Source: a virus. Taken from it: 39,443 nucleotides of DNA. Below are positions 3,144 through 29,463 of this stretch, one piece after another (position 1 is the first letter of the stretch; each line of letters starts with the position of its first letter). The notes beneath the pieces are model-generated. The model ran no database searches. It saw only the letters and a program-made list of their open reading frames with translations, and was not told the origin of the DNA. The position numbers and the translations under genes are program-made. Where the stretch lies: UHGV virus genome UHGV-0120658; one strand, 5' to 3'.

Positions 3144-4079
3144 TTATATATTTTTAGTAAAAACTCTTTTACATTTTGCCAAAACGATAATGTCAGTAAG
3201 TAAGCATTCAAAACTTGTGTTAGTGCCTACAACTTTAACCATACCAACGGGTATGCGAGTCAAATCTTTGATGCTTATTTTCCCTTCAATATTCACAAGC
3301 CACTTGCCATCAGTAACTTCATTAAATTTTGATTCTACAATATATATTTCCTCATCAATGAATACTGCTAAAGGTTGCAGAAAGGTTCCTTCTAACAACT
3401 TAGAGTCAAAAGTCAAGACGGTTTCTTGAGCAAGAGATCCATCAATTATTTTATGATATGGGATAGTGATAGTATTGATTCGAGGCTTTTCAAACATTGC
3501 CCCGTTACCAGTGGTTAGCCATGTTAATGAAGCACCAGTTTCCAGTGAGCATTGAATAATCCAGTCAGCAGGAAAGGTATCTCTCATGTAACGATTGGCT
3601 AATGTACTTTTTGATACACCAATATGATCAGCTAAAGCTTGTCTTGTCTTAAATCCATAAGCCAAAACGATTCGCTCTATTGCTGCTTTTCCGCCTTGGT
3701 TAATAGTAAAAAAGTTCTCATTTTGGATGTCTTGTTCTCTATTGAGATGTTGATGCTTGCTGTCACAATTGTTGTGACTTTTTTCTGCATTATTTGTAAT
3801 GCTTCCCTTCTCGGTATCAGTGCCAAATGCCAACCACTCGACCGGCACTCCAGTCTCCATGCTACAGATAACAACCCAATCAGCAGGGAAAGTGTCACGG
3901 GCATACCTGTTCGCCATTGTACTTTGCGATATACCTAGGTGATTACAGAATGCTTGTCGGGAAGAAAAACCATAGGCTTTCAGTATCCGATCTATAACCG
4001 ATTGCCCTCCGCGATTCTGCATGATTAAGGATTTCTTTTTTTCGTCCACATGGCGAAATGTGATTTCGTGTGTTGACAT
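3144..4079 (-). CDS. Prophage immunity repressor with two tandem CI-type HTH domains and a C-terminal beta-rich domain
   Basis: Residues about 24-86 and 129-191 are about 59% identical repeats (AYGF..RQA...G.S.ST.ANRY.RDTFPADW...CS.ETG...WL..G), resembling the phage CI N-terminal HTH. Divergent from the Apl-like gene across the 4080-4167 intergenic region. Confidence 0.7.
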   Translation of the reverse strand: MSTHEITFRHVDEKKKSLIMQNRGGQSVIDRILKAYGFSSRQAFCNHLGISQSTMANRYARDTFPADWVVICSMETGVPVEWLAFGTDTEKGSITNNAEKSHNNCDSKHQHLNREQDIQNENFFTINQGGKAAIERIVLAYGFKTRQALADHIGVSKSTLANRYMRDTFPADWIIQCSLETGASLTWLTTGNGAMFEKPRINTITIPYHKIIDGSLAQETVLTFDSKLLEGTFLQPLAVFIDEEIYIVESKFNEVTDGKWLVNIEGKISIKDLTRIPVGMVKVVGTNTSFECLLTDIIVLAKCKRVFTKNI

Positions 4080-5761: not shown

Positions 5762-5995
5762 ATGCGTAATATTGAAACCCTCACGACTAAAACCGGACCG
5801 GATGATGCAGGTCTTAATCTTTTACTGACAGAGGCCCGACTTGAAGAACGTCGGGCAAGGGCTGAGGCAATGGCTGCCCGCCTTGATAGCCTGGCGTGTC
5901 ATATCACATCCCGCCAGCTAAACCACGTCGAAGCAGCAGAACTGCTGCGTGTGACCGCTGAAGCAATCCAGAACGAAGCGCAGGAGATCCACTAA
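5762..5995 (+). CDS. Hypothetical early protein (77 aa)
   Basis: ATG at 5762 preceded by CAGGAGAA RBS; its stop overlaps the start of the TraR-like gene. Confidence 0.5.
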   Translation: MRNIETLTTKTGPDDAGLNLLLTEARLEERRARAEAMAARLDSLACHITSRQLNHVEAAELLRVTAEAIQNEAQEIH

Positions 5996-6222: not shown

Positions 6223-7076
6223 GCACCATCCTGAAATGGGCGGGAAATAAAACCGCAATTATGTCCGAACTGAAAAAATACCTACCTGCTGGCCCGCGAC
6301 TGGTTGAACCTTTCGCGGGTTCCTGTGCTGTGATGATGGAGACGGATTACCCCAGCTATCTGGTTGCGGATATTAATCCTGATTTAATCAACCTCTATAA
6401 AAAGATTGCCGCTGATTGCGAGGCGTTTATATCGCGGACCAGAACTTTGTTTGAGGAAGCAAACAGTGACCTAGCTTATTACAACATAAGGCAGGAGTTT
6501 AATTACTCAACTGAAATTACTGATTTCATGAAAGCGATATATTTCCTGTATCTCAATCGTCATGGTTACCGTGGGTTATGTCGCTATAACAAGAGCGGGC
6601 ATTTCAACATTCCCTACGGTAATTATAAAAATCCGTATTTCCCTGAAAAAGAAATTCGCGCATTTGCAGAAAAAGCCCAGCGGGCAACGTTTATCTGCGC
6701 CAGCTTTGATGAAACGCTGGCGATGTTGAAGGCGGGGGATGTGGTGTATTGCGATCCGCCGTATGACGGCACGTTTTCCGGTTATCACACTGACGGCTTC
6801 ACTGAAGATGACCAGTATCACCTGGCATCCGTTCTTGAATATCGATCATCAGAAGGTCATCCGGTCATTGTTTCTAACAGTGACACATCCCTGATCCGTT
6901 CGCTGTATCGCAATTTCACTCACCACTACATCAAGGCAAAACGCAGCATCGGCGTGTCAGCTGGCGAGAGTAAATCTGCAACAGAAATCATTGCTGTTTC
7001 CGGGTCGCGCTGCTGGATGGGATTTGATCCTTCGCGTGGCGTGGATAGTTCTGCTGTGTACGAGGTGCGTGTATGA
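6219..7076 (+). CDS. dam: DNA adenine methyltransferase (Dam-like, N6-A MTase)
   Basis: N-terminal LKWAGNK and AdoMet motif EPFAGSCAV, catalytic DPPY (VYCDPPYDG). ATGA overlap with the TraR-like gene at the start and with gene A at the end. Confidence 0.85.
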
Positions 7077-9487
7077 GTCATGACGATATGAGCAACTCTA
7101 GCGGCTTTAACGAGGCTGCCGCAGCATTTTCATGGAACGGCCCGAAAAAGGCCATTAACCCTTATCTGGATCCGGCGGAAGTTGCGCCGGAGTCTGCACT
7201 TTCAAACCTGATCACTCTGTACGCTGCCGATAACGAGCAGGAACAACTGCGCCGCGAGGCACTGAGTGAGCAGGTCTGGGAGCGTTATTTCTTTAATGAA
7301 TCCCGTGATCCTGTCCAGCGCGAAATGGAGCAGGATAAGCTCATTAGCCGGGCAAAGCTGGCGCATGAGCAGCAGCGTTTTAACCCGGACATGGTCATTC
7401 TGGCAGATGTCAGCGCCCAGCCTTCTCATATCAGCAAGCCGCTGATGCAAAGTATCGAATACTTCAGCAGCCTGGGCAGGCCAAAGGCTTATTCCCGCTA
7501 TTTGCGTGAGACGATTAAGCCATGTCTGGAGCGACTGGATTGTGTACGTGACAGTCAGCTATCTGTTTCTTTCCGTTTTATGGCAAGCCATCAAGGGCTG
7601 GAGGGGCTGCTGATCCTGCCTGAAATGAGCCAGGATCAGGTGAAACGCCTGTCCACCCTGGTAGCAGCGCATATGAGCATGTGTCTTGAGGCCGCTTGTG
7701 GTGATTTGTACGCCACCGATGACGTTAAGCCAGAAGAAATCCGCAAGACATGGGAAAAGGTGGCTGCGGAAACCCTGCGTCTGGATGTTATCCCGCCTGC
7801 GTTTGAGAAACTTCGTCGGAAAAGAAACCGCCGCAAACCTGTGCCCTATGAACTCATACCGGGTTCGCTGGCACGTATGCTTTGCGCCGACTGGTGGTAT
7901 CGAAAATTGTGGAAGATGCGTTGCGAATGGCGGGAAGAGCAGTTGCGTGCTGTCTGTCTGGTCAGCAAAAAAGCATCTCCCTATGTCAGCTATGAAGCAG
8001 TGACGCATAAACGTGAGCAGCGCCGCAAGTCGCTGGAGTTTTTCCGTTCTCATGAACTGGTGAACGAAGACGGAGACACGCTGGATATGGAAGATGTGGT
8101 AAACGCCAGCAGCAGCAACCCGGCACATCGCCGCAATGAGATGATGGCCTGCGTTAAAGGTCTGGAGCTTATCGCGGAAATGCGCGGTGACTGCGCCGTT
8201 TTCTACACCATCACCTGTCCGTCACGTTTCCATTCCACGCTCAATAACGGCAGACCAAACCCGACCTGGACAAATGCGACGGTAAGACAAAGCAGTGATT
8301 ATCTGGTCGGCATGTTTGCTGCATTTCGTAAGGCGATGCACAAAGCCGGATTGCGGTGGTATGGCGTGCGGGTGGCTGAGCCGCATCATGACGGTACTGT
8401 GCACTGGCATCTCATGTGCTTCATGCGTAAAAAAGACCGCCGCGCCATCACTGCATTACTGCGTAAGTTTGCCATCCGTGAAGACCGCGAGGAACTGGGC
8501 AATAACACGGGGCCACGCTTTAAGTCTGAGCTGATTAACCCGCGCAAAGGAACGCCGACAAGCTACATCGCGAAATACATCAGTAAGAACATTGACGGGC
8601 GTGGTCTGGCTGGCGAGATCAGCAAGGAAACGGGTAAATCCCTGCGTGATAACGCTGAATACGTTAATGCCTGGGCGTCTCTGCATCGTGTTCAGCAATT
8701 CCGCTTCTTTGGCATTCCGGGGCGTCAGGCTTACCGTGAACTGCGATTGCTGGCTGGTCAGGCGGCAAGGCAGCAGGGTGACAAAAAAGCAGGTGCGCCG
8801 GTACTGGATGATCCGCGTCTTGATGCCATTCTGGCTGCTGCTGATGCTGGCTGTTTTGCCACCTACATTATGAAGCAGGGCGGCGTGTTGGTTCCCCGCA
8901 AATATCACTTGATCAGAACCGCTTATGAAATCAACGAAGAGCCGACCGCCTATGGTGATCACGGTATTCGTATTTATGGCATCTGGTCACCCATTGCAGA
9001 GGGCAAGATCTGCACTCATGCAGTGAAGTGGAAAATGGTTCGTAAGGCCGTTGACGTTCAGGAGGCGGCAGCCGACCAGGGCGCTTGCGCCCCTTGGACT
9101 CGTGGCAATAACTGTCCCCTTGCTGAAAATTTGAACCAACAGGAGAAAGATAAATCAGCTGATGGGGACCCCAGAACGGACATTACCAGCATGGATGACA
9201 AGGGGTTGCACGATTACCTGCACAGTATGAGCAAAAAAGAGCGCCGGGAACTGGCAGCAAGGTTATGCCTGGTGAAACCGAAACGGCGTAAAGACTACAA
9301 ACAGCGAATTACAGACCATCAGCGACTGCAGCTCGTGTATGAGCTGAAGTCCAGAGGATTTGATGGCAGCGAGAAAGAGGTCGATTTACTCCTTCGCGGA
9401 GGCAGTATTCCGTCAGGAGCAGGCCTGCGTATCTTCTATCGGAACCAGCGTTTGCAGGAAGATGATCAGTGGCGGAACCTGTATTAA
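7073..9487 (+). CDS. A: Replication initiation protein A (rolling-circle endonuclease, P2 gpA-like)
   Basis: 804 aa with HxH motif VHWHLMCF and the tyrosine pair SYIAKYISK typical of P2 A-type initiators. Confidence 0.85.
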
Positions 9488-9640: not shown

Positions 9641-9829
9641 ATGCAGGACTATTTTTTGGAGTCTTTGAAGCTCCAGCGCATTGATTTTTTTCTTAAGCTT
9701 GTAGCGGCTAGTGAGTGTAGTGATGAAGAGAAGGGGCTGGCTCTGCAGTGGGTTTCTGAATTGACTGATGAACTCATGGCAAAAATCAGAACCCACGAAT
9801 ACAACCGCTCAATGGATGTCATCAGCTGA
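9641..9829 (+). CDS. Small 62-aa protein in the LexA-controlled module (candidate antirepressor partner)
   Basis: ATG at 9641 with AGGAGG RBS, immediately downstream of the LexA box. Function inferred from position. Confidence 0.45.
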   Translation: MQDYFLESLKLQRIDFFLKLVAASECSDEEKGLALQWVSELTDELMAKIRTHEYNRSMDVIS

Positions 9830-9839
9830 GGTGACTTTT

Positions 9840-10073
9840 ATGCGCATTGAAATAATGATCGATAAAGAGCAGAAGATTAGCCAGTCTACCCTGGACGCCC
9901 TTGAATCCGAGCTTTACCGCAATCTGCGCCCCCTGTATCCCAAAACGGTAATTCGCATTCGCAAAGGTAGCTCTAACGGTGTGGAACTAACCGGACTGCA
10001 ACTGGACGAAGAAAGAAAACAAGTGATGAAAATTATGCAGAAGGTGTGGGAAGACGACAGCTGGCTGCATTAA
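9840..10073 (+). CDS. DinI-family protein (Tum/DinI-like SOS module)
   Basis: 77 aa MRIEIMIDKEQKISQSTLDALESELYRNLRPLYP...KIMQKVWEDDSWLH resembles E. coli DinI (MRIEVTIAK...ETWESADDWF); GAGGTG RBS. Confidence 0.65.
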   Translation: MRIEIMIDKEQKISQSTLDALESELYRNLRPLYPKTVIRIRKGSSNGVELTGLQLDEERKQVMKIMQKVWEDDSWLH

Positions 10074-10383: not shown

Positions 10384-11463
10384 GTGGCGTTATCAGATGC
10401 GTTAATTACAGTAAATCAAGCCGAACGGGGCGGTGAAAACGCGTTGAGAGGCTTTTCATATCAAGCCTCTTGGGGGATAAATTATTTACTTGAGAAACAA
10501 AAAGAAAAGGAGAAATATTTATTTCTATTTGAATATCATGACGATATTCTTGTATTGAATTCATCTGTTTCTCCGACTAGTGCTGAGTTTATCCAAGTTA
10601 AAACAAAAAAAGATGGTAAATGGACACTCGCAGCAATAGTGAACGCAACAAAAGCTAAACCTAAATCATTTGTTGCAAAACTATATGACCATTTCTATCA
10701 ATTCGTTGGTCACGAAATTTATATGGTTCTGTTATCGAATGCTGGATTCGATTTCTTAAATGATAATAACGAAAAAGGTAGTGATCTTAATAATGAGCAT
10801 AAGGAAATTATAATTAGTAAGGTTCAAGAGCAGCTAAATACTAAAAAAGAAGTTCCTCTTGATAAAATAAAATTTAAAACATCTGATCTTAGTTTGTTAG
10901 ATCCTAACTCACATTTATACGGGAAAGTTGCAGTTTTTTTGAATTCTTACTTTGGGGATGATCATGGTATTAATTCAACAGCATTCACTAAATTATTAAT
11001 CAATAAGTGTAATGAGAAGGTTAGTGTTGCTTCTAGTGATATCAAAACTTTTGAAGATTTAGTACTAAAGAAAGGTATATCTTCAGAATTTGTAACTGAT
11101 TTATTATCTGGACTCATTGCAAGCATAAAAATAACGCCAAAATGGGAACAGGTTTGTATGTTGCTTGGTACTTTCTCAGATCCTTATGAGGGGATTAAAT
11201 TACAATCAGTTTTTACACGCATATCAATAAAAGTGCTCAATGTCAATTCAATATACTATCTTTATTTTCTGGAATTTCAATCGGCTCTAAAGAGTATAGA
11301 GCATTATCGTGAGATACCTGTTCGAGACCTCTTCTTTACACTCGAAAAAACAATTGCAGCGGGGGACGGGGATTTCTCTTTATTAAATCAAGAAGAGAAA
11401 TTTATGATTGCTATATATGCAATTATAAAGTTGACTTTTGAGGATGTTTCTTATGAAGAATAA
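10384..11463 (+). CDS. Candidate defence effector: PD-(D/E)xK nuclease of the Cap4/DUF4297 type (LmuA-like)
   Basis: AT-rich gene; N-terminal GFSYQ, then FEYHDDILVL...AEFIQVKTKK, i.e. a D...QxK restriction-endonuclease-like catalytic core (about 10540-10602). GTG start with AGGGA RBS; 11-nt overlap with the downstream ATPase gene. Confidence 0.55.
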   Translation: MALSDALITVNQAERGGENALRGFSYQASWGINYLLEKQKEKEKYLFLFEYHDDILVLNSSVSPTSAEFIQVKTKKDGKWTLAAIVNATKAKPKSFVAKLYDHFYQFVGHEIYMVLLSNAGFDFLNDNNEKGSDLNNEHKEIIISKVQEQLNTKKEVPLDKIKFKTSDLSLLDPNSHLYGKVAVFLNSYFGDDHGINSTAFTKLLINKCNEKVSVASSDIKTFEDLVLKKGISSEFVTDLLSGLIASIKITPKWEQVCMLLGTFSDPYEGIKLQSVFTRISIKVLNVNSIYYLYFLEFQSALKSIEHYREIPVRDLFFTLEKTIAAGDGDFSLLNQEEKFMIAIYAIIKLTFEDVSYEE

Positions 11464-13111
11464 CGTTAAATTTAAAAATATAAAAATACTCTCATTAAGA
11501 GACAGAAAAGCTTTTTCTTATGAGTTTTCAGAAGGGGTTAACTTCATATATGGTACAAATGATGTTGGTAAATCAAGCCTGATTAAAAGTCTTTATTACA
11601 CATTAGGTGGAGATTTAAGGCTTGATGATGCTTGGAAATCAGATGATATAGTTACACTGGTGGAAATTAATAACGGGGAAAATGATTTTATTTTTTTGCG
11701 TTATAAAAAGATTATTGGTGTCTTTGATTTGAAGAATGATGATCTAGTCGTGTATAACACGATTTCGTCATTAGCATCTCGTGTTTCAAATATATTTGGT
11801 TTTAAACTGGAATTACATAATAAATATACGGGTGCTACGACTCAGGCAAACCCTGCTTGTTTGTTTGCCCCATTCTTTATTGATCAGGATGAAGGATGGA
11901 AAGCGGTGATAAATTCTTTCGAAAACATGAGTATGTACTCAGAATGGCAAAAAAACATTCTTTACTATCACTCTGGAATTAAGCCAAAGGAATATTATAC
12001 AGTTCAAGGGAAAATCAAAGAAATTAAAGTTAAAATTTCAGAGTTAGATGGTTTTGTTAAGGTTCTAAAAAGAAGCAAAAGTAAGATTGATGAATCTTTT
12101 GGCGTGGTTTTATTTGATGTTGATTTGGATTTTTATAAATCAAAGTTGGAACGTATATTAAATGAATATTCTAATTTAAATTTAGTTCAGACAGAATATA
12201 GATTGAATCTTTTGAGGTTATATTCTAGGAAGAATTTCCTTGAGAGTGAACTCAAAGAGATAACTGCGATTATTGATAATGAATTTGAGATTTCGAATTT
12301 TCGAGATGATAATGTTGCTTATTCAGTAAATGAATATAATTATATAAACCATAGAGATGAAATGCTCAAAAACATTGCTGTTCTTGCAGATGAGAAAAGC
12401 AAGATTGAGGAAAATATTCCTAAATTGAATCAAAAGCTAGAAGAGTCAAGGGCTGCTTCAGAGGCGTTGCAGGCGCTGATTTTAGAAACTCAATCGGAAA
12501 TAACGCTTCATGATGTTATTAAATCTGCCGCATACCATGAAATTGAATCTACTTTTATTTCACAGTTAGATGAGTTATTCGTTGAGATTGGTCGAAAAGA
12601 AGGCGAGTTGACAGAATTACAAGAAGAATTAGAAGTATACAATGATAAGAAAAGAACTGTTAAAATAAATGACTGTTTCAAAGAGTATTTCGCTAAAGCT
12701 CTTAAAGAGCTTGGTGTCGAAAATACAAAGGTAGGTGGCCTTAGTAGTTATAATAATATTACTAAGGGTAAGACTGGTAGTCGAGGTCCTCGAGGTATAT
12801 TTGCATTTCACTACGCGCTGCTTAGTGTTATGAAAAGCAACTCTTCAGTTGAGAATATGCCTATAGTAATAGACTCTCCAAAGCAACAAGATTTGGATCC
12901 AGAGCATACGCATAAGCTTATAAAACTATGCTTGGATGGGTTTTCCCTTACAAATCAGATTATTATTGGAACTGTTGGTTATGAGAGTTTCATGGATGGT
13001 TTTAATAGCATCAAACTTGAAAATAAATATCATCTTTTAAATGATGAACATTATGATAATGTTTATTCTCAATTAATGCCATTGTTTGAACGGGTGATAC
13101 TTTCAAGATGA
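11453..13111 (+). CDS. Candidate defence ATPase: SMC/Rad50-like coiled-coil ABC ATPase (LmuB-like)
   Basis: Walker A GTNDVGKSS near the N-terminus (about 11552-11578), long central heptad-rich region, C-terminal Walker B-like PIVIDSP. ATG at 11453 overlaps the upstream stop (11461-11463). Confidence 0.55.
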   Translation: MKNNVKFKNIKILSLRDRKAFSYEFSEGVNFIYGTNDVGKSSLIKSLYYTLGGDLRLDDAWKSDDIVTLVEINNGENDFIFLRYKKIIGVFDLKNDDLVVYNTISSLASRVSNIFGFKLELHNKYTGATTQANPACLFAPFFIDQDEGWKAVINSFENMSMYSEWQKNILYYHSGIKPKEYYTVQGKIKEIKVKISELDGFVKVLKRSKSKIDESFGVVLFDVDLDFYKSKLERILNEYSNLNLVQTEYRLNLLRLYSRKNFLESELKEITAIIDNEFEISNFRDDNVAYSVNEYNYINHRDEMLKNIAVLADEKSKIEENIPKLNQKLEESRAASEALQALILETQSEITLHDVIKSAAYHEIESTFISQLDELFVEIGRKEGELTELQEELEVYNDKKRTVKINDCFKEYFAKALKELGVENTKVGGLSSYNNITKGKTGSRGPRGIFAFHYALLSVMKSNSSVENMPIVIDSPKQQDLDPEHTHKLIKLCLDGFSLTNQIIIGTVGYESFMDGFNSIKLENKYHLLNDEHYDNVYSQLMPLFERVILSR

Positions 13112-13151: not shown

Positions 13152-14186
13152 TTAAATTTTTAGTTCGTAGGTTGAAAAATTTATAATTCTATCGTTTAAC
13201 CAATTATTTATTTCTAGAAACATTTTTTGTAGAGGCAGTAGCTCATTTCGTACAAATACTGTGCTTGCCTTTTCGATATCCCCAAACCCCCCGACATTAT
13301 TAGGCATTATCCCCATCATTTGTGGCGGCACACGATGCGCCGCCATCATGTCGTCCCGGCTCACGTTCTTGATATTCAGGAACTCATCCTTCGCCGCCAC
13401 TTCTGACAACGGGATAATCTGAAGCCCGTCCTTTTTACCGTTAGGCGAGTACATAAACAGGTTACGGAAGTTACCAGGACCTTTGGCGCTTTTCATCGCA
13501 TTGCGGAGGTTGTTCACATCCTCCTGGTTCTGCGCAGCATCGGTCATGTACATGATGAAGCCTGCATGACTGCCGTTAATGTAATACTTGCGGCGGAACA
13601 GCGTGGCGGACTCGTTGAGCAGAGCTGACGGAATGGCAGAAAGATAACCGGGCAGGCCGTAGATCTCCTGGTTAATGTCCGGTTCCATCAGATGAAAAAT
13701 GCTGCCTTTCGTGAACTGATACGGCTGGGTTGTCATACCGTATTGCACAAACCAGTAGGTATCCAGGTCTAACCCGCGTCGGGTGTATTTTGCCAGCGCA
13801 GGCTCAAGGGCGATAACTTCACCGAATCGGTTCGTGCGTTTCTCCAGGTAGGCGTTACCAAATACCAGATAGTCCAGCACAAAACGCGAAAAAGCCTGCT
13901 GGCTGAGAAGCGGGTGAGGGATGTAGGTGCTGGTCAGAATGTTGCATTTCACTGCAATTGGTGAACTGTGATGCACGGCAGCGCGGAAGGTGCGCGCCAG
14001 TCCGTCAAAGCTGACGGGAGGCTCATACCAGCGATCTGTCTGTACGCATTCCACATAGTCCAGCAGTTCGCGGCGGTCAAGTACTGGAATGGGATCACCG
14101 AAGCTGAATGCTTCGGCTGAAGCTTGGCTTTTATGCTGGATCTGGTTCGTCGCCGCAGCGCGTTTTTTTTTACTCTTTCCCATCAA
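13152..14186 (-). CDS. Q: Portal protein (P2 gpQ-like)
   Basis: 344 aa, same length as P2 Q; sits next to the terminase gene in the conserved Q-P leftward operon. Confidence 0.85.
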   Translation of the reverse strand: MMGKSKKKRAAATNQIQHKSQASAEAFSFGDPIPVLDRRELLDYVECVQTDRWYEPPVSFDGLARTFRAAVHHSSPIAVKCNILTSTYIPHPLLSQQAFSRFVLDYLVFGNAYLEKRTNRFGEVIALEPALAKYTRRGLDLDTYWFVQYGMTTQPYQFTKGSIFHLMEPDINQEIYGLPGYLSAIPSALLNESATLFRRKYYINGSHAGFIMYMTDAAQNQEDVNNLRNAMKSAKGPGNFRNLFMYSPNGKKDGLQIIPLSEVAAKDEFLNIKNVSRDDMMAAHRVPPQMMGIMPNNVGGFGDIEKASTVFVRNELLPLQKMFLEINNWLNDRIINFSTYELKI

Positions 14187-15949
14187 AAAATCTCCACAAT
14201 ATTGCTGGTATTGGCGGACTCGCCCTGCAGCGGTTCGTTAAACAGTGCGTGCATTGTTGCCCAGGCCAGATCGGCATGGCTGGCTTCTTCACTGCGGCTT
14301 GCTTCATAGGTCGGGCGGTTGCCGCTGGCGGTGGTTGCGCGACGGATTGCCATAAATGACTGCGCTATGTCGGTGTGTCCGGCGTCAAACTCCAGACGAC
14401 GGTGACTGATAATGTCGTAGGCCTTGAGTACCAGGGCGTTTTTAACGTTGGGGTTGTAGACAAACTCCCGGACGGCTGGAAAAAACGCTTTCACGTTTTC
14501 ATAAACCCCGTGACCGACACCCGTCGAGTCGATGCCGATATAGGTCACGTTGTACTGTTCGGTCAGTTTTTTGATGGCGTCAGCCTGGGCGCGGAAGTCC
14601 ATCCCGCGCCACTGGTGACGCTCAAGAATGCGGAACTTACCGCCCGGCACGGCTGGCGGTGCCACCACCACGCATCCGGCGCTGTCGCCGTTTTGCGTAC
14701 CTTTTGCCGGGTCATAACCGATCCACACCTCGCGCCAGCCAAACGGGCGCAGGGCCAGTGCATGAAAGTCGGTCCAGACTTCCCAGCTGTCCACCATGCA
14801 CGCCTGCAGCTCGCTGAGCGGGAACACGGACGCGAGATCGTCCACGAACTCGCACATCAGCAGGTTCTGGTATTCGTCCGGGCTGTACTCCATGCGCAAC
14901 TGGTCAAGGTCGAACAGGTTACAGCCGCCGCGCACCGCATCTTCCACGGTGACTATCTGGCGGTATTGCCCGTCTGCGCACAGCAGGCCGGGGGCCAGAT
15001 TGCTATGGGACAGGTCGATGTCCACCTTGTCGGCTTTGTTGCGTCCACGGTTGAACAGCGCACCGGACCAGAACGGATAAGCACTGTGTGTCAGGCTGGA
15101 TGGCGTGGAAAAATAGGTTTGTCGCCATTTTTTGTGAATAGCCATACCGGAAGCCACTTTGCGCAGCTCCTGGAATTTCGGTATCCAGAAATATTCATCC
15201 AGATACAGGTTGCCGTGGTAACTCTGGGCCGTGCGGGCATTGGTGCCGAGGAAGTAAAGAGTGGCCCCGTTGGGAAGCACCATCGGATCGCCTTTCAGCT
15301 CCACCTCCACTTCTTTGGCGAAGTCGATGATGTACTGTTTAAAGACGTGGGCCTGTGCCTTACTGGCAGAAAGGAAAATCTGGTTACGTCCGGTTAGCAG
15401 GGCGTCAATCAGGGCTTCACGGGCAAAATAGAAGGTCGCGCCGATCTGGCGTGACTTCAGCAGGTTGCGGATGCGGTTGGTTTTTCCGGCTTCCCACCAG
15501 TGGCACTGGTAGTTGAACATGGAGGAATGGAAGATTTCTTCCAGCTTCTCAATCTGTTCATCGGTGAAAACATTCTTTTCCGGCTGACGGCGCGGGCCTT
15601 TGTTGCGGTTGGCGACGTTAGGGTTTAAGTCGGCTTCGTTGCCGCCATTGTTAAACTTGCCGATCCGCGCGTGGCGCTCCGACTGGCGCGCCAGCAGGTC
15701 AATTTCTTTAAAGTCTTTCCCTTCTTTGTGCTCCTTCATGATGAGCTGGCAGTAGCGTGCGGCGGTGGTGAGCTGCATCTGATCCAGCGGCCCATAGTCA
15801 CCCCACTTGTCGCGTTTTTTCCAGCTGTGAACGGTTGCAACTTTCTCGCCCAGCATTTCAGCAATGCGGGCTACGCGGTATCCCTGAAAGTACAGCAGCA
15901 TGGCCTGCCGACGGGGATCGAGATCTGCGGATGTCAGTGTGGTGTTCAT
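14183..15949 (-). CDS. P: Terminase large subunit, ATPase (P2 gpP-like)
   Basis: 588 aa; terminase-type deviant Walker A LLKSRQIGATF; ATGA overlap with Q. Confidence 0.85.
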   Translation of the reverse strand: MNTTLTSADLDPRRQAMLLYFQGYRVARIAEMLGEKVATVHSWKKRDKWGDYGPLDQMQLTTAARYCQLIMKEHKEGKDFKEIDLLARQSERHARIGKFNNGGNEADLNPNVANRNKGPRRQPEKNVFTDEQIEKLEEIFHSSMFNYQCHWWEAGKTNRIRNLLKSRQIGATFYFAREALIDALLTGRNQIFLSASKAQAHVFKQYIIDFAKEVEVELKGDPMVLPNGATLYFLGTNARTAQSYHGNLYLDEYFWIPKFQELRKVASGMAIHKKWRQTYFSTPSSLTHSAYPFWSGALFNRGRNKADKVDIDLSHSNLAPGLLCADGQYRQIVTVEDAVRGGCNLFDLDQLRMEYSPDEYQNLLMCEFVDDLASVFPLSELQACMVDSWEVWTDFHALALRPFGWREVWIGYDPAKGTQNGDSAGCVVVAPPAVPGGKFRILERHQWRGMDFRAQADAIKKLTEQYNVTYIGIDSTGVGHGVYENVKAFFPAVREFVYNPNVKNALVLKAYDIISHRRLEFDAGHTDIAQSFMAIRRATTASGNRPTYEASRSEEASHADLAWATMHALFNEPLQGESANTSNIVEIF

Positions 15950-20689: not shown

Positions 20690-21083
20690 AGCAGTGCCTT
20701 ATGTCCGCAATAACCCGGACAAACTGCATCTGTTTGTGGATAACGGTTCGCTGGTTGCCACGGGGGCCAGCTCCATGTCATGGGAGTACCGCTATACCCT
20801 GAACGTGGTGATTGAGGATTTCAGCGGCGACCAGAATCTGCTGATGGCCCCGGTTTTGCTGTGGCTGCGGGATAATCAGCCTGATGCCATCAATAACCCG
20901 GCGTTACGGGAAAAGTTATTCACCTTTGAGGTGGATATTCTGCGCAATGATGTCTGTGATATCAGCCTTAACCTGCAACTGACGGAGCGTGTGCTGGTCA
21001 GCACTGATGGCAGTGTGTCGAGTGTTGAAGCTGTAGCGGAACCCGATGAACCTGAAGAAATGTGGACGGTGAAACGTGGCTGA
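20652..21083 (+). CDS. R: Tail completion protein (P2 gpR-like)
   Basis: GTG start with AGGAG RBS; VNKPQSLRHALNKAV...FVDNGS aligns with P2 R. Confidence 0.75.
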   Translation: MNKPQSLRHALNKAVPYVRNNPDKLHLFVDNGSLVATGASSMSWEYRYTLNVVIEDFSGDQNLLMAPVLLWLRDNQPDAINNPALREKLFTFEVDILRNDVCDISLNLQLTERVLVSTDGSVSSVEAVAEPDEPEEMWTVKRG

Positions 21084-21522
21084 ATTGCAGAAGGTGGACG
21101 GCTGGTTGAGTGCCTTGCTGGCGAATCTGGAGCCAGCCGCAAGAAGCCGTATGATGCGCCAGCTGGCGCAAGAACTGCGCCGGACACAGCAGCAGAACAT
21201 CAGGATGCAGCGCAATCCAGATGGCAGTAGTTATGAGCCGCGCAGAGTAACAGCACGCAGCAAAAAGGGGCGCATCAAACGTCAGATGTTTGCAAAGCTG
21301 CGCACCAAAAAATACCTGAAAACTGCCGCCAGCGCCGATTCTGCCAGCGTGCAGTTTGAAGGTAAGGTGCAGCGCATTGCCCGCGTTCATCACTACGGCC
21401 TGCGTGATCGTGTTAGTCGTAAGGGGCCGGAGGTACGTTATGCTGAGCGGCGGCTATTGGGTTTCAACGATGAAGCTACTCTTCAAATTAAGACAATTTT
21501 ATCTAGTTACTTAATGGGGTGA
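21076..21522 (+). CDS. S: Tail completion protein (P2 gpS-like); last ~13 codons come from AT-rich inserted DNA
   Basis: 148 aa; conserved through ...GPEVRYAERRLLGFNDE, then the sequence turns AT-rich (from about 21470) and the C-terminal tail ATLQIKTILSSYLMG lies in that AT-rich DNA. Confidence 0.75.
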   Translation: MAELQKVDGWLSALLANLEPAARSRMMRQLAQELRRTQQQNIRMQRNPDGSSYEPRRVTARSKKGRIKRQMFAKLRTKKYLKTAASADSASVQFEGKVQRIARVHHYGLRDRVSRKGPEVRYAERRLLGFNDEATLQIKTILSSYLMG

Positions 21523-21614
21523 AGATTCATGCTTTTGCTAGCTTCTACAAGGTTTTATGCTTCTAAACACTGTATGTTTAATTTGACATATAACTATTTG
21601 TACAAGCGGTGAGT

Positions 21615-22838
21615 ATGAAAAAGCAAGATGAGTCCCCCAAAGCTGATAAATCAAATTTAGATAAAAGTGAGTCTGAACCACCAAAAGCGAACTCTATGGC
21701 AGATGCCATGGCCATAGCGGCAGAGGTTGCTACGACAGCAACGTCAGTTCAAACATCAACCTTTGCAATTATCGCGGATTTTCTACGTTCAGGTGGTATA
21801 GAAAAACTAACTTCAAATGCTATCAAAAATTTAGAAATAAAAGTAAAGGGCCATTCTCAAGCGACAAGAACTACGGTATTGAGGAACCTGAAGACCTCTT
21901 TCAAAGAGGAGAATTTAGTTCTTGTTTTAGGTGCTGGCATTTCTTTAGATTACAGCATACCAACATGGAGTGAATTATTAAAGCGGCTATTGGCAAGAGC
22001 TTTGGATGATAAAAATGAAAATCAGAAAATGGTATCGGTTTTGTTTAATGAGGTTTTCGGTCCGAACGCACTCATAGCAGCCAGATATCTAAAACTACAC
22101 TTTGATGGTATTAATACTCCCTTGGAAAAAGAAATTCAGCATGTTTTGTATGAATATTATCAGGAGGAAGAAAGCAGTACATTGAAAGCAATCAAGAAAT
22201 TGTGCATATCGGCAGGCAAGTCACCAGGTCTAGATTCCGTTATTACATATAACTATGATGATATTTTGGAACAGACATTAACTAGAGCTGATGTTTGTAT
22301 AAAGTATAAGGTGATTTCAAAGACGGGACAGCATGCAAAAAATGATGAACTGCCGATCTACCATGTGCATGGCTATCTCCCATTGCAGGGGAAAGTTGAA
22401 CTCGATGACACGCTAGTCCTTTCTGATGAAAGCTATCATAGGCAATACATGGATTTATACCATTGGAGCAATATGGTTCAGTTGAATAAATTCAAAGATG
22501 GAAATTGCCTGTTTGTTGGTCATTCCTTTACAGATCCAAACCTCAGAAGGTTGATGGATACAGCCAAAAAACTTAGAGGGAATGATTCTAAACCTCATTA
22601 TTTAATTAAGTGTAGACATTCGAAAGAAGATGTGATTGCTAATATTCAAAGAATTGTTAGTGACTCAAGAAATGGATTTGATAATAAACTGAATATTAAT
22701 GAGGATGCAATCGCGACCTCTCTTTTACAGACAGTGCATACTTTTGAAGAAATCGATGCTAATTCATTTGGCGTGAATGTTATTTGGATCGACTCTTACG
22801 ATGAGATTGCACCAATACTTAATGATCTAACACAATAA
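21615..22838 (+). CDS. Standalone SIR2-like (SIR2_2 family) protein; candidate NAD+-depleting defence effector
   Basis: AT-rich gene between S and V. Motifs in family order: LVLVLGAGISLDYSIPTWSELL (GAGIS at 21930-21944), ITYNYDDILE, IYHVHGYL, LVLSDESYHRQY, CLFVGHSFTDPNLRRL. About 100-aa charged N-terminal extension. The track ORF starts at GTG 21609. Confidence 0.65.
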   Translation: MKKQDESPKADKSNLDKSESEPPKANSMADAMAIAAEVATTATSVQTSTFAIIADFLRSGGIEKLTSNAIKNLEIKVKGHSQATRTTVLRNLKTSFKEENLVLVLGAGISLDYSIPTWSELLKRLLARALDDKNENQKMVSVLFNEVFGPNALIAARYLKLHFDGINTPLEKEIQHVLYEYYQEEESSTLKAIKKLCISAGKSPGLDSVITYNYDDILEQTLTRADVCIKYKVISKTGQHAKNDELPIYHVHGYLPLQGKVELDDTLVLSDESYHRQYMDLYHWSNMVQLNKFKDGNCLFVGHSFTDPNLRRLMDTAKKLRGNDSKPHYLIKCRHSKEDVIANIQRIVSDSRNGFDNKLNINEDAIATSLLQTVHTFEEIDANSFGVNVIWIDSYDEIAPILNDLTQ

Positions 22839-22849
22839 TCTCCCTAAGT

Positions 22850-22867
22850 TGTGCCAGAAATGGCACA
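22850..22867. promoter_or_regulatory. TGT-N12-ACA palindrome upstream of V (late-activator site or hairpin terminator of the SIR2-like gene)
   Basis: TGTgccagaaatggcACA; also a 7-bp stem-loop. Its centre is only 57 bp from the V start codon, so assignment is ambiguous. Confidence 0.3.
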
Positions 22868-22915
22868 GCTTTAAATCCTATCCTAATGACGGCAGCATTT
22901 GGCAATCTAATTGCC

Positions 22916-23494
22916 ATGAACGCTCAACTAACAGAAATCATGCGCCTTATCACCAATCTGATCCGCACTGGTGTAGTCACCGAAGTGGACCGGGAAAACT
23001 GGCTTTGTCGGGTGAAAACGGGCGACCTTGAAACCAACTGGATTAACTGGCTGACACTGCGCGCGGGCAAATCGCGCACCTGGTGGAAACCGTCTGTGGG
23101 TGAGCAGGTTGTGCTGTTCAGCCTTGGCGGCAATCTGGAAACCGCGTTTGCCCTGCCTGCGGTCTACTCAAACCAGTTTCCGCCACCTTCAGATTCTGAG
23201 AACGGTAACGTGACGGAATACCCGGACGGTGGCTGGTTTGAATACGAACCCGCCACCGGGCGCTGGTATGTCAGGGGCATCAAATCAATGGTCATTGAGG
23301 CCGCTGACAACATCACCATGAAAGCCAGTGAGTTTGTACTGGAGGCTGACCGCACGCGCATTAACAGCGAAGTGGTGATCAATGGTGGCGTTACCCAGGG
23401 CGGCGGAGCGATGAGTTCTAACGGGATCGTGGTTGATGCGCATCAGCATACTGGCGTCCTGAAAGGCGGCGATACAACCGGAGGCCCGGTATGA
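22916..23494 (+). CDS. V: Baseplate spike/assembly protein (P2 gpV-like)
   Basis: MNAQLTEIMRLITNLIRTGVVTEVD aligns with the remembered P2 V N-terminus; the track ORF from 22886 is an upstream extension. Confidence 0.85.
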   Translation: MNAQLTEIMRLITNLIRTGVVTEVDRENWLCRVKTGDLETNWINWLTLRAGKSRTWWKPSVGEQVVLFSLGGNLETAFALPAVYSNQFPPPSDSENGNVTEYPDGGWFEYEPATGRWYVRGIKSMVIEAADNITMKASEFVLEADRTRINSEVVINGGVTQGGGAMSSNGIVVDAHQHTGVLKGGDTTGGPV

Positions 23495-26884: not shown

Positions 26885-27487
26885 ATGGAACAGGTTATTT
26901 TGGGAAAAGACGGTTACGCTTTAAATGATGGGGAAATCATCGTACATAACTATGATGGCGAAACGCGGGAATATATTTCCACATCAACTGAATATCTTGC
27001 GGTTGGCGTCGGTATCCCGGCATGTTCTTGTTTAGATGCACCAGTTACACATAAAGCTGGTTATACAATTTGCCGTTCTGTGGATTTAAAATCATGGGAA
27101 TATGTGTCAGACCATCGCGGTGAAATCGTCTATAACACCGAAACGGGAGACGCCAAAGAAATCACAGCTCCGGGTGATTACCCTGAAAATACAACCACTA
27201 TCGCCCCATTAACGCCATACGATAAATGGGATGGTGAGAAATGGGTGACCGATACTGAGGCACAGCATCGCGCCGCAGTAGACGCGACAGAAGCACAGCG
27301 TCAGTCACTGATTGATACTGCAATGGCTTCCATTAGTCTGATTCAACTGAAATTACAGGCCGGGCGGAAACTGACGCAGGCAGAAACAACCCGGCTTAAC
27401 GCTGTGCTGGATTACATTGACGCGGTGACGGCAACAGATACCAGCACCGCGCCGGATGTCATCTGGCCTGAACTGCCGGAGGAGTAG
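26885..27487 (+). CDS. G: Tail fibre assembly protein (P2 gpG-like)
   Basis: 200 aa after H; its C-terminus resembles that of the alternative Tfa on the other strand. Confidence 0.8.
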   Translation: MEQVILGKDGYALNDGEIIVHNYDGETREYISTSTEYLAVGVGIPACSCLDAPVTHKAGYTICRSVDLKSWEYVSDHRGEIVYNTETGDAKEITAPGDYPENTTTIAPLTPYDKWDGEKWVTDTEAQHRAAVDATEAQRQSLIDTAMASISLIQLKLQAGRKLTQAETTRLNAVLDYIDAVTATDTSTAPDVIWPELPEE

Positions 27488-27899
27488 GCCATTCAATATC
27501 TGGTGCACTGGAAGTATCGACCAGCTCCAGTGCGTCCAGATAATCCAGCCACAAATTATATTGCGCCAGTTCCTCACCTTTCAGACGACCAATTGATGCT
27601 TTACCTGGCCATTGTTTACTGTTGATGTATTCGTTGGCCTGGTTAATCAATTGCTGCTTTTTAGTTTCGGCTGATGCAATTTGTTCTTCACGTGTTGGTG
27701 GAGGAACATCTGCCCAAGCTGGCATTCCGTCGCCTGCGGTAATTCTGCGCTTACCTTCGGGCGGCGTGTCATAGAAATATTCCCTGAAAATAGCTTCGTC
27801 TATATCCACGCCTTTACCTTCGGGCCATTGGCCTTTTGCAGCGTAAACAGACTGGAGGGCATAAGGGTACGCCAGATTATCAACATACAAATATTTCAT
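27459..27899 (-). CDS. Alternative tail fibre assembly protein (tfa'), inverted orientation
   Basis: 146 aa on the minus strand, convergent with and overlapping G; C-terminal SAPDIEWPTPP parallels TAPDVIWPELP in G. Confidence 0.7.
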   Translation of the reverse strand: MKYLYVDNLAYPYALQSVYAAKGQWPEGKGVDIDEAIFREYFYDTPPEGKRRITAGDGMPAWADVPPPTREEQIASAETKKQQLINQANEYINSKQWPGKASIGRLKGEELAQYNLWLDYLDALELVDTSSAPDIEWPTPPAVQAR

Positions 27900-27901
27900 A
27901 A

Positions 27902-28231
27902 TTAACGCCCTTTCGCGTAGAAGGCTCCACCTTCAAAGCCATAGTTACAATGAGCAACGAAACCTGTTTTCGTCCAGTTAGTTGCGCCCCACATATTCCC
28001 ACCACCAAAACCGCCGTCATATACAATCACTACGTCTGGCTCCTGCGTAAAAGGAATGGTGAAAGTCACATTTGTAGATACCGCCGCGGCGTTATTCGGG
28101 AAATTAATTCTTCCCCACTGTTCAATTGAACCATCAGGCAATTTTTGCCAGCCAGATCCTGATGAATAAGCTGACATATCAGGTATCTGATTTTCCCCTG
28201 TCCCTACATCCCGTTTTGCCGCCTCTCCCAA
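27902..28231 (-). other. Promoterless alternative tail fibre C-terminal cassette (H'), expressed only after inversion
   Basis: Minus-strand ORF with no ATG, starting at the right inversion site; in frame with the H constant part across the shared GLGE crossover codons. Confidence 0.65.
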
Positions 28232-28248
28232 ACCAACCTTTGAAAATG
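28223..28248. repeat. Right inversion site (inverted copy)
   Basis: CTCTCCCAAACC-AA-CCTTTGAAAATG; the core TCTCCCAAACCAA (28224-28236) is the exact reverse complement of TTGGTTTGGGAGA (26388-26400). Confidence 0.6.
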
Positions 28249-28270
28249 GTCACCTATATAGGTGACCATT
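28245..28270. other. Perfect 26-bp palindrome AATGGTCACCTATATAGGTGACCATT (terminator or protein-binding site)
   Basis: Exact reverse-complement symmetry; sits between the orf140 stop and the right inversion site. Confidence 0.5.
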
Positions 28271-28274
28271 CGGG

Positions 28275-28697
28275 TTAATGCAGCGTTGTAGTTGAGCTGG
28301 ACTCTGCCATTGCCACTGTCAATTCATCGCCTTCGGCTGAGATCTTAATGGTATTACTTCCTTCTGATTTAGCGCCTTTTGGTAGACCTAGCTGATCATA
28401 GATACACAAGAATCTTGAATCATTTATAAAGGTGATTTCTGTTACAGTCCCACCTTCAACGACCTTAGAGTCTATTGATTTTATCAAATTGATATCCTGA
28501 ACATTAATGTGCTTTATCGCATCCCAGTTAAGGCTGATGTCCACGTTATCCTTTTGCATCGTTATCACATGACCGGCCTTATGCTGGGTTGTGACTTTTC
28601 CATCAGGGCTCATCGTAATCTTTTGCCCCATGTGATAAATAATTTGAGTTCCGTCTTCGAGACACTCGATTTTTGGCTCTTTAGTAAAGTCGTTCAT
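28275..28697 (-). CDS. Hypothetical 140-aa protein at the Z/fun-equivalent position
   Basis: AT-rich ORF between the invertible segment and the invertase gene; no recognised motif. Confidence 0.5.
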   Translation of the reverse strand: MNDFTKEPKIECLEDGTQIIYHMGQKITMSPDGKVTTQHKAGHVITMQKDNVDISLNWDAIKHINVQDINLIKSIDSKVVEGGTVTEITFINDSRFLCIYDQLGLPKGAKSEGSNTIKISAEGDELTVAMAESSSTTTLH

Positions 28698-28902
28698 GAA
28701 AATCCTTCAATTATCTGTTGCTGGAAGGTGCTAATCTACACGAATCCTTGGTTATGTATGTAATGAGGCTCTAGAAATCCACTTGAATATAAATAAATTT
28801 TTATGGTGTTGGCTTGTAATGCTCGCGTAGCTCTTTGTCAAAAGTGAAACTCTGATAACCTGGTTCTACTGACGAACAGAAGGATGAGCAGGAGATCGCT
28901 TT

Positions 28903-29463
28903 ATGATTATTGGGTATGCACGAGTATCAAGTAACCATCAGGACACCGAGCTTCAGATGCAGGCGCTCAGAGCTGCTGGCTGTAAGTTAATTTTTGAGGA
29001 AAAGGCTTCTGGCCGTAAGACGAATCGACCAATCTTGAAGAAAGTGGTTGAGATGCTTGAACCCGGTGACGAACTGGTCATCTGGAAGTTAGATCGTATC
29101 GGTCGCAATGTACTGCACGCATTATTGACCTTTCAGAGCCTCGCAGAACGCAATGTTAATATTCGTTCTATTACAGATGGCGTTGACCTGAGCACTGCCA
29201 GTGGGCGCTATAACTTCCGTAATATTCTCTCTGCGGCACAATATGAGTCTGATCTGAATAGTGAACGCACTCTGGCAGGGTTAGCGGTTGCCCGCGCTAA
29301 GGGGAGGATTGGCGGACGTAAGCCTAAGTATACTGATGAGCACTGGGATGCGTTTGAACGGGAAATTAAGTCCGGCTGCTCACATCGTGATATAGCTCTC
29401 AAATATGGGGTCGGCCTGTCGACTCTCTACAAACGTTATCCGCCTCAGCAAGAGCATCACTAA
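28903..29463 (+). CDS. Serine recombinase, DNA invertase (Hin/Gin/Pin/Cin family)
   Basis: N-terminal catalytic domain MIIGYARVSSNHQDTELQMQAL with the active-site serine in RVSS; C-terminal HTH. Confidence 0.85.
   Translation: MIIGYARVSSNHQDTELQMQALRAAGCKLIFEEKASGRKTNRPILKKVVEMLEPGDELVIWKLDRIGRNVLHALLTFQSLAERNVNIRSITDGVDLSTASGRYNFRNILSAAQYESDLNSERTLAGLAVARAKGRIGGRKPKYTDEHWDAFEREIKSGCSHRDIALKYGVGLSTLYKRYPPQQEHH

Follow-up and report, generated by a model that had tools for sequence, protein, structure and literature searches.

A one-gene SIR2_2 cargo module in the S-V gap of a P2-like prophage: a candidate stand-alone abortive-infection NADase

SIR2 NADases are established defence effectors, and the NADase activity of ThsA, the SIR2 protein of the Thoeris system, requires its residues Asn112 and His152. 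KomC of the Kongming system is activated by dITP through KomA and KomB, the three genes forming one operon (review PMC13434031), the vertebrate proteins FAM118A and FAM118B depend for their activity on self-assembly into filaments (PMC12700824), and ThsA, KomC, Avs5, and FAM118B are all activated by a change of their assembly state (PMC12700824, PMC13434031). The gene neighbourhoods of the SIRim clade are reported to be 12-fold enriched for defence systems (preprint 10.1101/2024.09.18.613514). This report deals with one SIR2 gene of UHGV virus genome UHGV-0120658, a stretch of 39,443 nucleotides (nt) that was analysed at its full length (hereafter the window) and is a complete P2-like prophage located beside ybjL. 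The gene lies between the tail-completion gene S and the baseplate gene V, codes for a protein of 407 amino acid residues (aa), and is proposed here, with moderate confidence and by analogy with the systems above, to encode a self-contained, single-polypeptide SIR2 abortive-infection NADase.

An earlier note on this DNA, made from the sequence alone, had described AT-rich DNA with one 407-aa gene as an interruption of the late operon. The AT-rich interval and its gene were observed as described: the composition profile gave a GC fraction of 0.35-0.41 at about 21450-22950 against 0.55-0.60 around it, and the sole long open reading frame (ORF) of the block is located on the + strand at 21609/21615-22838, with 407 aa as counted from the ATG at 21615. 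Besides this SIR2 gene, no ORF of at least 50 aa was detected by ORF scan of the block; shorter ones, of 25-48 aa, lack conservation among the variant inserts described below, and a 27-codon ORF at 21529-21612, ending 2 nt before the SIR2 ATG, was dismissed since it is not conserved in these variants. The Rfam scan of 21300-23100 matched no RNA family. About 30 P2-like phages of Klebsiella and Escherichia match both flanks (92% identity) but are without about 1.3 kb at this position, indicating that the insertion is real, and comparison of the S-V junction, in which alternative cargo was also found, supports the earlier proposal of foreign cargo. The parts of the block and its two homology arms are listed below.

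21076-21462, + strand: conserved part of the tail-completion gene S (codons 1-129), the left homology arm, near-identical in nine phages
21463-21522, + strand: variable 3' end of S (codons 130-148 and the stop codon), AT-rich and cargo-specific
21523-21614, + strand: spacer of 92 nt between S and the SIR2 gene, with no convincing promoter and no terminator found
21615-21866, + strand: N-terminal tail of the SIR2 protein (aa 1-84), of low complexity and unconserved
21867-22838, + strand: SIR2_2 (SIRim-type) catalytic domain (aa 85-407 and the stop codon), Pfam SIR2_2
21930-21944, + strand: codons of the GAGIS motif
22251-22253, + strand: codon of Asn213
22368-22370, + strand: codon of His252
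22850-22867, no strand: TGT-N12-ACA dyad (TGTGCCAGAAATGGCACA), with its end 48 nt ahead of the start codon of V
22916-23494, + strand: baseplate gene V, with which the V late operon begins; the right homology arm

The right boundary of the block is exact, homology among all the phages compared restarting at the V start codon (22916). The left boundary is located at S codon 129/130 (about 21463 of the window): nine S proteins from phages with differing cargo are near-identical through residue 129, the last 19 residues being unrelated in detail, and in a phage whose site is empty the S tail is again a different one. Since the S proteins diverge after residue 129, the exchanged module corresponds to 21463-22915 and the replaced S tail to 19 codons; the 3' end of S thus belongs to the exchanged module, as had been noticed before, but its length had been put too low, at about 13 codons. 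Gene S (21076-21522) was identified as Pfam Phage_tail_S (E 1.1e-40), the profile match extending to residue 146 into the variable 3' end, and gene V as Pfam Phage_base_V (E 8.6e-18) plus an Apex motif, with the same start in RefSeq for Escherichia coli E41. Among 5426 complete E. coli genomes, the same insert was found with 99.6-99.7% DNA identity in four unrelated strains, and a variant insert with 75% nucleotide identity in four further genomes. The DNA from 21463 to 22915 is a cargo module with a single gene, acquired horizontally and swapped by recombination between the conserved S body and the V start; an S tail and a copy of the activator site of the V promoter come with it.

The 407-aa protein matched Pfam SIR2_2 (PF13289) with 71.2 bits (cut-off 24.5, E 1.3e-19), in agreement with the family proposed earlier, and all of the SIR2 motifs on which that proposal was based are present, including GAGIS at aa 106-110, YNYDD at 212-216, HVHG at 250-253, and FVGHSFTDP at 300-308. 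Asn213 of YNYDD and His252 of HVHG were aligned with Asn112 and His152 of ThsA, respectively; Ala replaces the catalytic Asn of ThsA in one cryo-EM entry of this protein. The best PADLOC matches were LmuA-SIR2 (6e-21) and ThsA (1.2e-20), and further matches were obtained to PDC-S25, Dsr1, the SIR2 protein of SIR2-HerA, and the Argonaute-associated SIR2, all confined to the SIR2 domain. In NCBIfam, Dsr1 was the only model matched, with 29.8 bits against a cut-off of 1400, over the SIR2 part. Among solved structures, the best sequence matches were ThsA and KomC (E 4.5e-6 for KomC). In the AlphaFold2 model, built from 56 homologues with a mean predicted local distance difference test score (pLDDT) of 73.7, residues 85-407 were predicted to form a sirtuin-like Rossmann domain with a helical lid, the segments with pLDDT below 50 being residues 1-54, 60-66, and 73-81. 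Foldseek comparison of residues 85-407 with the PDB gave a probability of 1.0 to the NADase domains of ThsA, KomC, and DSR2, with a TM-score of up to 0.84 (normalised to KomC), so that structure prediction bears out the assignment as well.

The protein gave no match to the canonical Pfam SIR2 family, and its 407-aa sequence contains no CxxC pairs, indicating that it is without the zinc-ribbon module of deacylating sirtuins. No profile match in Pfam, PADLOC, or NCBIfam covers aa 1-84. By its profile, its GAGxS motif with the Asn/His pair, and its zinc-free sirtuin fold, the protein belongs to the SIR2_2 (SIRim) class; it consists of a bare SIR2_2 domain preceded by a short disordered tail, and both its NAD-binding pocket and its pair of catalytic Asn and His residues are intact.

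A large family of related proteins was collected: a word-indexed search yielded 991 proteins at E <=1e-5 among 8000 candidates scored, and an exhaustive search of cluster representatives yielded 3179 at E <=1e-3, including 458 at E <=1e-30. Most members are 340-420 aa in length, and the full-length architecture is common to hundreds of homologues. When 56 members were aligned, drawn from Enterobacteria, Vibrio, Shewanella, Bacillus, Bacteroidota, and other groups and with about 40% identity across phyla, 51 columns were invariant, all within residues 105-391; GAGIS, Asn213, Asp215, and His252 are invariant in these homologues from Proteobacteria, Firmicutes, and Bacteroidota. The N-terminal region, in contrast, ranges from about 10 to 100 residues and is variable in sequence, which speaks against a conserved N-terminal sensor; the sensor region that the earlier note had placed there was therefore not upheld, residues 1-84 being unconserved and low in pLDDT. 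One sub-branch carries an N-terminal extension of 140-200 residues with no domain assigned, and in rare relatives the same core is located C-terminal to LRR-Roc-COR or Mrr_N sensor-type domains, indicating that the core is used as an effector module and that the sensor-like domain, where present, is N-terminal. In a metagenome-assembled genome of Halomonas (L071, 4618-6879), two SIR2 paralogues of the family were found in tandem, an arrangement that recalls the vertebrate FAM118A/B pairing.

For identification of possible partners, 80 loci from different species, 15 viral contigs, and 16 loci obtained by exact protein look-up were collected, and ORFs within 3.5 kb of the SIR2 gene were called and clustered all against all. 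Apart from P2 genes, no recurrent neighbour was detected in 110 loci, the top recurrence being four among the 80 diverse species. When the 149 nearest neighbours in 75 diverse genomes were scanned, no Pfam family was found more than three times, those with three being phage integrases, and any one PADLOC model was matched at most twice. A HerA, STAND, TIR, Argonaute, SLOG, or SMC partner was found neither in the block nor in the homologous loci, and the earlier claim that the gene has no partner was thus extended from the block to all 110 loci. The genes upstream of the homologues in Vibrio, Shewanella, and Priestia were considered as partners and rejected, being unrelated to each other.

The contexts of the homologues are diverse. 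The Vibrio parahaemolyticus homologue (51% identity) forms one cassette of a chromosomal integron, with attC-type repeats at the cassette edges (5823-5964 and 7243-7363 of locus L008), and that of Priestia megaterium adjoins GmrSD and an integrase. In Enterobacter, an intact copy (73% identity) is located in a P2 remnant that has been stripped of most phage genes; this remnant (L010-L013), also beside ybjL, consists of CI, gpA and portal fragments, S, the intact SIR2 gene, and a V stub, and an FRG gene occupies its gpA-portal hotspot. In another decayed P2-like remnant beside ybjL, that of E. coli EC05 (L121), the SIR2 copy is split by an IS5-family element. No homologue of the SIR2 family was detected among 50,697 phage isolates or in BFVD, and a counter-defence role was rejected on this ground. 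The window itself carries a complete type I Lamassu pair, a known system, on the + strand at 10384-13111 in the classical gpA-portal hotspot, consisting of LmuA with a DUF4297 domain (359 aa, PADLOC E 4e-143) and the SMC-like ATPase LmuB (557 aa, E 8.6e-254). A link between the SIR2 gene and Lamassu was rejected, because Lamassu has its own effector and because in the prophage of E. coli PS10-3, which contains the SIR2 variant, this hotspot has no Lamassu but a gene for a PIN-domain protein and another for a hypothetical protein. Altogether, these loci strongly support that the family is a self-sufficient single-gene unit.

In the RefSeq record of phage P2, gene S is followed by the rho-independent terminator of the O operon, by Orf30 on the opposite strand, by the activator site of the V promoter, and by the V-ATG transcription start. 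The activator-binding site is recorded at 42-69 nt upstream of V. In all of the SIR2-carrying variants, the TGT-N12-ACA dyad is kept at 46-48 nt before V, as it is in the empty site, where the phage has a different TGT-N12-ACA sequence at the same distance from V. As judged from its sequence and position, the dyad at 22850-22867 is the Ogr/Delta-type activator site of the late V promoter. The presence of a V-type dyad downstream of the cargo, as in P2, indicates that the cargo is located between two late transcription units and not inside one. The operon is therefore not interrupted: S closes the late O operon, and the SIR2 gene is placed after it and ahead of the V operon, of which the activator site has been kept downstream of the cargo.

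The occupancy of this gap was examined with the empty site as query against the 5426 complete E. coli genomes, which gave 1069 matching records, the prophage lineage being present in 1063 genomes. Among an evenly spread sample of 60 of these records, the site was empty in about 30 and contained one extra gene of 0.5-1.7 kb in about 20; of the rest, six have a match that does not begin before V, together with a second place in the same record, and four match only part of the query. The genes at the site are annotated as DUF6216, TIR, DUF2971, P-loop ATPase (Sll1717 family), PcfJ, FRG, or hypothetical proteins and are located on either strand, so that such cargo on the opposite strand must have its own promoters. 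Five occupied sites other than that of the SIR2 gene were located as follows.

L117, 1087-1887: S-V cargo
L118, 913-1719: S-V cargo
L119, 980-1849: S-V cargo
L120, 1077-2588: S-V cargo
L004, 2529-4040: S-V cargo

The proteins encoded at these five sites are a 266-aa TIR protein, a DUF6216 protein (in E. coli BL21), a DUF2971 protein, and a 503-aa Sll1717-family P-loop ATPase, and each cargo brings its own 19-residue S tail. The P-loop ATPase was found at the S-V site of a Klebsiella phage. The 503-aa P-loop ATPase gave no PADLOC match, and none of the TIR, DUF6216, DUF2971, and P-loop ATPase cargo was seen listed as validated defence. Orf30 of P2 is AT-rich, non-essential, 261 aa in length, and of unknown family, with no match in Pfam or PADLOC. 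With its conserved flanks, its variable and often empty content, and its atypical composition, the S-V gap is a cargo hotspot of P2-like phages, contrary to the earlier note, which had not counted this junction among the hotspots. Hotspots A-Q and Z/fun appear in published surveys (PMC9122126, PMC9519451, preprint 10.1101/2024.10.15.618418), and further sites, 'within the tail genes' and 'downstream of GpL', are given in a survey of 2026 (PMC13586616); the S-V gap is not described by name in the accessible text of these sources.

Based on these properties, the SIR2 protein would be kept inactive in the lysogen and, upon infection by another phage, would be converted to its active form, probably an oligomer or a filament, as are ThsA, KomC, Avs5, and FAM118B; the active protein would then hydrolyse NAD+, leading to abortion of the infection. 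Given an unconserved tail and a core of very strong conservation, the infection cue is more likely to be read by the SIR2 core than by a dedicated sensor domain, and could be a conserved ligand, a change in the state of the cell, or a protein that binds to the helical lid. A role in protection of the host or prophage is favoured over a phage-offensive one, since the gene is absent from the 50,697 isolates and BFVD, is present in chromosomes and integrons, and is kept in decayed prophages. The closest precedent in concept may be a P4 'Thoeris with a single ThsA gene', one of 11 candidates tested, of which eight protected (PMC13586616). The SIR2 of Vassallo et al. was considered as a stand-alone precedent and rejected, because it belongs to the two-gene system PD-T7-2. 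A phrase search of the literature for a validated stand-alone SIR2 system gave nothing relevant, and an integron defence preprint contains no mention of SIR2.

Several points weigh against this proposal. To our knowledge, all defence sirtuins characterised so far come with a partner or a sensor domain, and a sensor-less one is without proven precedent; no experimental test of this SIR2 family was found in the literature searched, and no model of PADLOC or NCBIfam claims the protein as a system. Many of the 149 nearest neighbours in the 75 diverse genomes are housekeeping genes, making guilt by association weak outside mobile contexts. The expression signals are also unfavourable. In the 92-nt spacer, neither a sigma-70 promoter on the + strand nor a terminator was detected by consensus scan; with a weight matrix, promoter scores reached at best 6.1, below the shuffled median of 7.2, and promoter scans of the S-SIR2 spacers of the variants likewise gave nothing above shuffled background. 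No intrinsic terminator after S was found by consensus scan or RNA folding, the spacer RNA being folded into one long imperfect hairpin that takes in the start codon (z = -2.6), and the only stable hairpin was predicted 3' of the SIR2 stop codon, coincident with the activator dyad. The simplest reading of these signals is that the SIR2 gene may be transcribed by read-through from the late O operon. With no promoter found and no terminator after S, it may be transcribed only together with this operon, and such a mode of transcription would not suit a defence that is needed ready in the lysogen. Promoter prediction in AT-rich DNA is, however, unreliable both ways.

In a more radical form of the same proposal, to which we give a rather modest chance, the bare SIR2 protein would be a complete immune system, either with a core that both senses and polymerises in a FAM118-like manner or with sensing at the level of transcription through the Ogr-dependent late operon; in the latter case, a superinfecting P2-like phage or P4-type satellite would supply the late activator in trans and thereby switch on its own killer. 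Expression is also the point that distinguishes the main proposal from its chief alternative, which we regard as unlikely and in which the gene is a passenger of the Ogr-dependent O operon as its last gene and is made only when late transcription is on, that is, in the prophage's own lytic cycle or when the activator is provided in trans by such a phage or satellite. The product would then serve the phage, for example by NAD+ depletion that reduces what a competitor or satellite can yield, or by weakening host defences that depend on NAD. The location of the gene on the S strand, 92 nt downstream of S with neither terminator nor above-background promoter between, the position of the only hairpin beyond its stop codon at the V-promoter dyad, and the lack in this window of a terminator directly after S such as P2 has are all consistent with a passenger. 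Against it, DUF6216, DUF2971, and P2 orf30 occupy the same site on the opposite strand, so that the site is independent of late read-through; the homologues are lone chromosomal genes and integron cassettes outside phage operons, the gene is in no isolated phage of the set searched nor in BFVD, and the promoter predictions, as stated, may err in either direction.

That the protein is an orphan effector with its partner encoded elsewhere, such as a protein that makes a signal (TIR or another), a pair resembling KomA and KomB, or the SMC ATPase LmuB of the prophage's Lamassu, is judged improbable. Its best PADLOC matches do belong to multi-gene systems (LmuA-SIR2, ThsA, and SIR2 of SIR2-HerA), the closest solved structures, ThsA and KomC, rely on a partner-made signal, and a complete Lamassu pair is present in the same prophage at 10384-13111; but no SLOG/STALD or LmuA C-terminal domain is present, the matches ending at 275 of 478 in ThsA and at 236 of 433 in LmuA, the Lamassu pair already has its DUF4297 effector and is replaced by a PIN-domain and a hypothetical gene in PS10-3 and by FRG in the Enterobacter remnant, and the lack of a recurrent neighbour in 110 loci and the spread as a single integron cassette argue for autonomy. 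A similarly low probability is assigned to a SIR2-type transferase, an ADP-ribosyltransferase or deacylase that would modify a specific host, phage, or virion target without depleting NAD. Some sirtuins act as ADP-ribosyltransferases, some RefSeq records label close relatives 'NAD-dependent protein deacylase', and the unusual conservation of the core across phyla (about 40% identity, 51 invariant columns) fits recognition of a conserved target; the RefSeq product names, however, are automatic labels, the close structural neighbours are all NADases, and with no canonical Pfam SIR2 match and no CxxC pairs the protein has no deacylase zinc ribbon. Least probable by far is a decaying, non-functional remnant of illegitimate recombination. 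The gene is rare (8 of 5426 E. coli genomes) and one copy is interrupted by IS5, but its frame and all catalytic residues are intact, it is kept almost identical in the four unrelated strains, its full-length architecture recurs in hundreds of homologues, and it has been kept intact while the prophage decayed around it.

The effector and its likely chemistry are familiar, and the stand-alone architecture and the way of triggering are unfamiliar. The family is a large, conserved, effector-only one that moves singly through prophage hotspots, integron cassettes, and genomic islets, and the S-V (orf30) gap is an often-occupied, one-gene cargo site of E. coli P2-like prophages. Protection by the SIR2 gene, if it occurs, would make this a minimal form of sirtuin defence and would lead to the question of how infection is sensed by a SIR2 core on its own.

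Other features were observed along the prophage, in which the genes for capsid, lysis, and tail come after those for portal and terminase. Its main landmarks upstream of these are the following.

1065-2111: integrase
7073-9487: gpA
13152-15949: portal and terminase genes

Between the integrase and the CI repressor, an AT-rich gene on the - strand (2188-3132) encodes a 314-aa protein with no match in Pfam or PADLOC, the sequence of which suggests a coiled-coil N-terminal half and hydrophobic C-terminal segments; the homologues found, about 160 in number, come without exception from Enterobacterales, and almost every one bears the name 'hypothetical protein'. A gene for a 660-aa AAA ATPase occupies the integrase-CI site of the related prophage in E. 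coli PS10-3. This site looks like another cargo hotspot, with the 314-aa gene as an uncharacterised candidate. The CI repressor (3144-4079, - strand, 311 aa) contains two copies of the Phage_CI_repr helix-turn-helix (HTH) followed by one Phage_CI_C domain, and is thus the tandem-HTH version of the P2/186 type. A DinI-like gene (9768-10073, + strand, Pfam DinI E 1.3e-22) is located just downstream of gpA, before Lamassu. Two tail-fibre and fibre-assembly genes lie on the - strand at 27459-27899 and 27902-28231, followed by a 140-aa ORF at 28275-28697 with no Pfam match, beside a resolvase-type DNA invertase at 28903-29463; the stretch 27459-29463, which is at the Z/fun position, has the appearance of an invertible segment for host range.

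Among the known systems, ThsA of Thoeris type I (SIR2-SLOG; PDB 6LHX, 8BTO, 7UXT) is the best solved-structure match in both sequence and fold, and shares with the protein described here the GAGxS, N-x-D, and H-G layout, the SIR2_2 class, and the lack of a zinc module. It differs in its C-terminal SLOG/STALD domain, which binds gcADPR from the neighbouring TIR protein ThsB; the present protein ends with SIR2 (ThsA profile match 4-275 of 478), has no SLOG, and is encoded without an adjacent thsB. KomC of Kongming (264 aa; PDB 8ZSF, 9XVC) is likewise a bare SIR2, gives the top target-normalised TM-score of 0.84, and works as a filament, but the protein here is longer by about 60 residues in the core and by an 85-residue N-terminal tail, and neither the deaminase KomA nor the HAM1-like pyrophosphatase KomB is encoded beside the gene or its homologues. 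DSR1 and DSR2 are single-gene SIR2 NADases as well, with a fold probability of 1.0, and differ in being about 1000 aa or longer, against 407 aa here, with a large C-terminal sensor that in DSR2 binds the phage tail tube. For Lamassu with LmuA-SIR2 and LmuB, the LmuA match covers 4-236 of 433, and the LmuB of the prophage is located 8.5 kb off beside an LmuA of the DUF4297 type; the components that mark SIR2-HerA, SPARSA, and Avs5, namely HerA, a short Argonaute/APAZ, and a fused STAND NTPase, were found neither in the block nor in the homologous loci. All of these systems, from Thoeris to Avs5, need a partner or a fused sensor, of which none is present here. The P2 orf30 locus differs in that its cargo is located on the opposite strand behind the O-operon terminator, the SIR2 gene being on the S strand with no detectable terminator before it, and is alike in its flanking genes, the position of the V activator, and the AT-rich composition of the cargo. 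Chains of FAM118 were retrieved neither at E <=0.01 in the sequence search of solved structures nor among the top 50 fold matches, and the resemblance of FAM118A/B to the SIR2 protein of this prophage is one of architecture only: these vertebrate SIR2_2 proteins (SIRal/SIRanc) are likewise stand-alone and of similar size.

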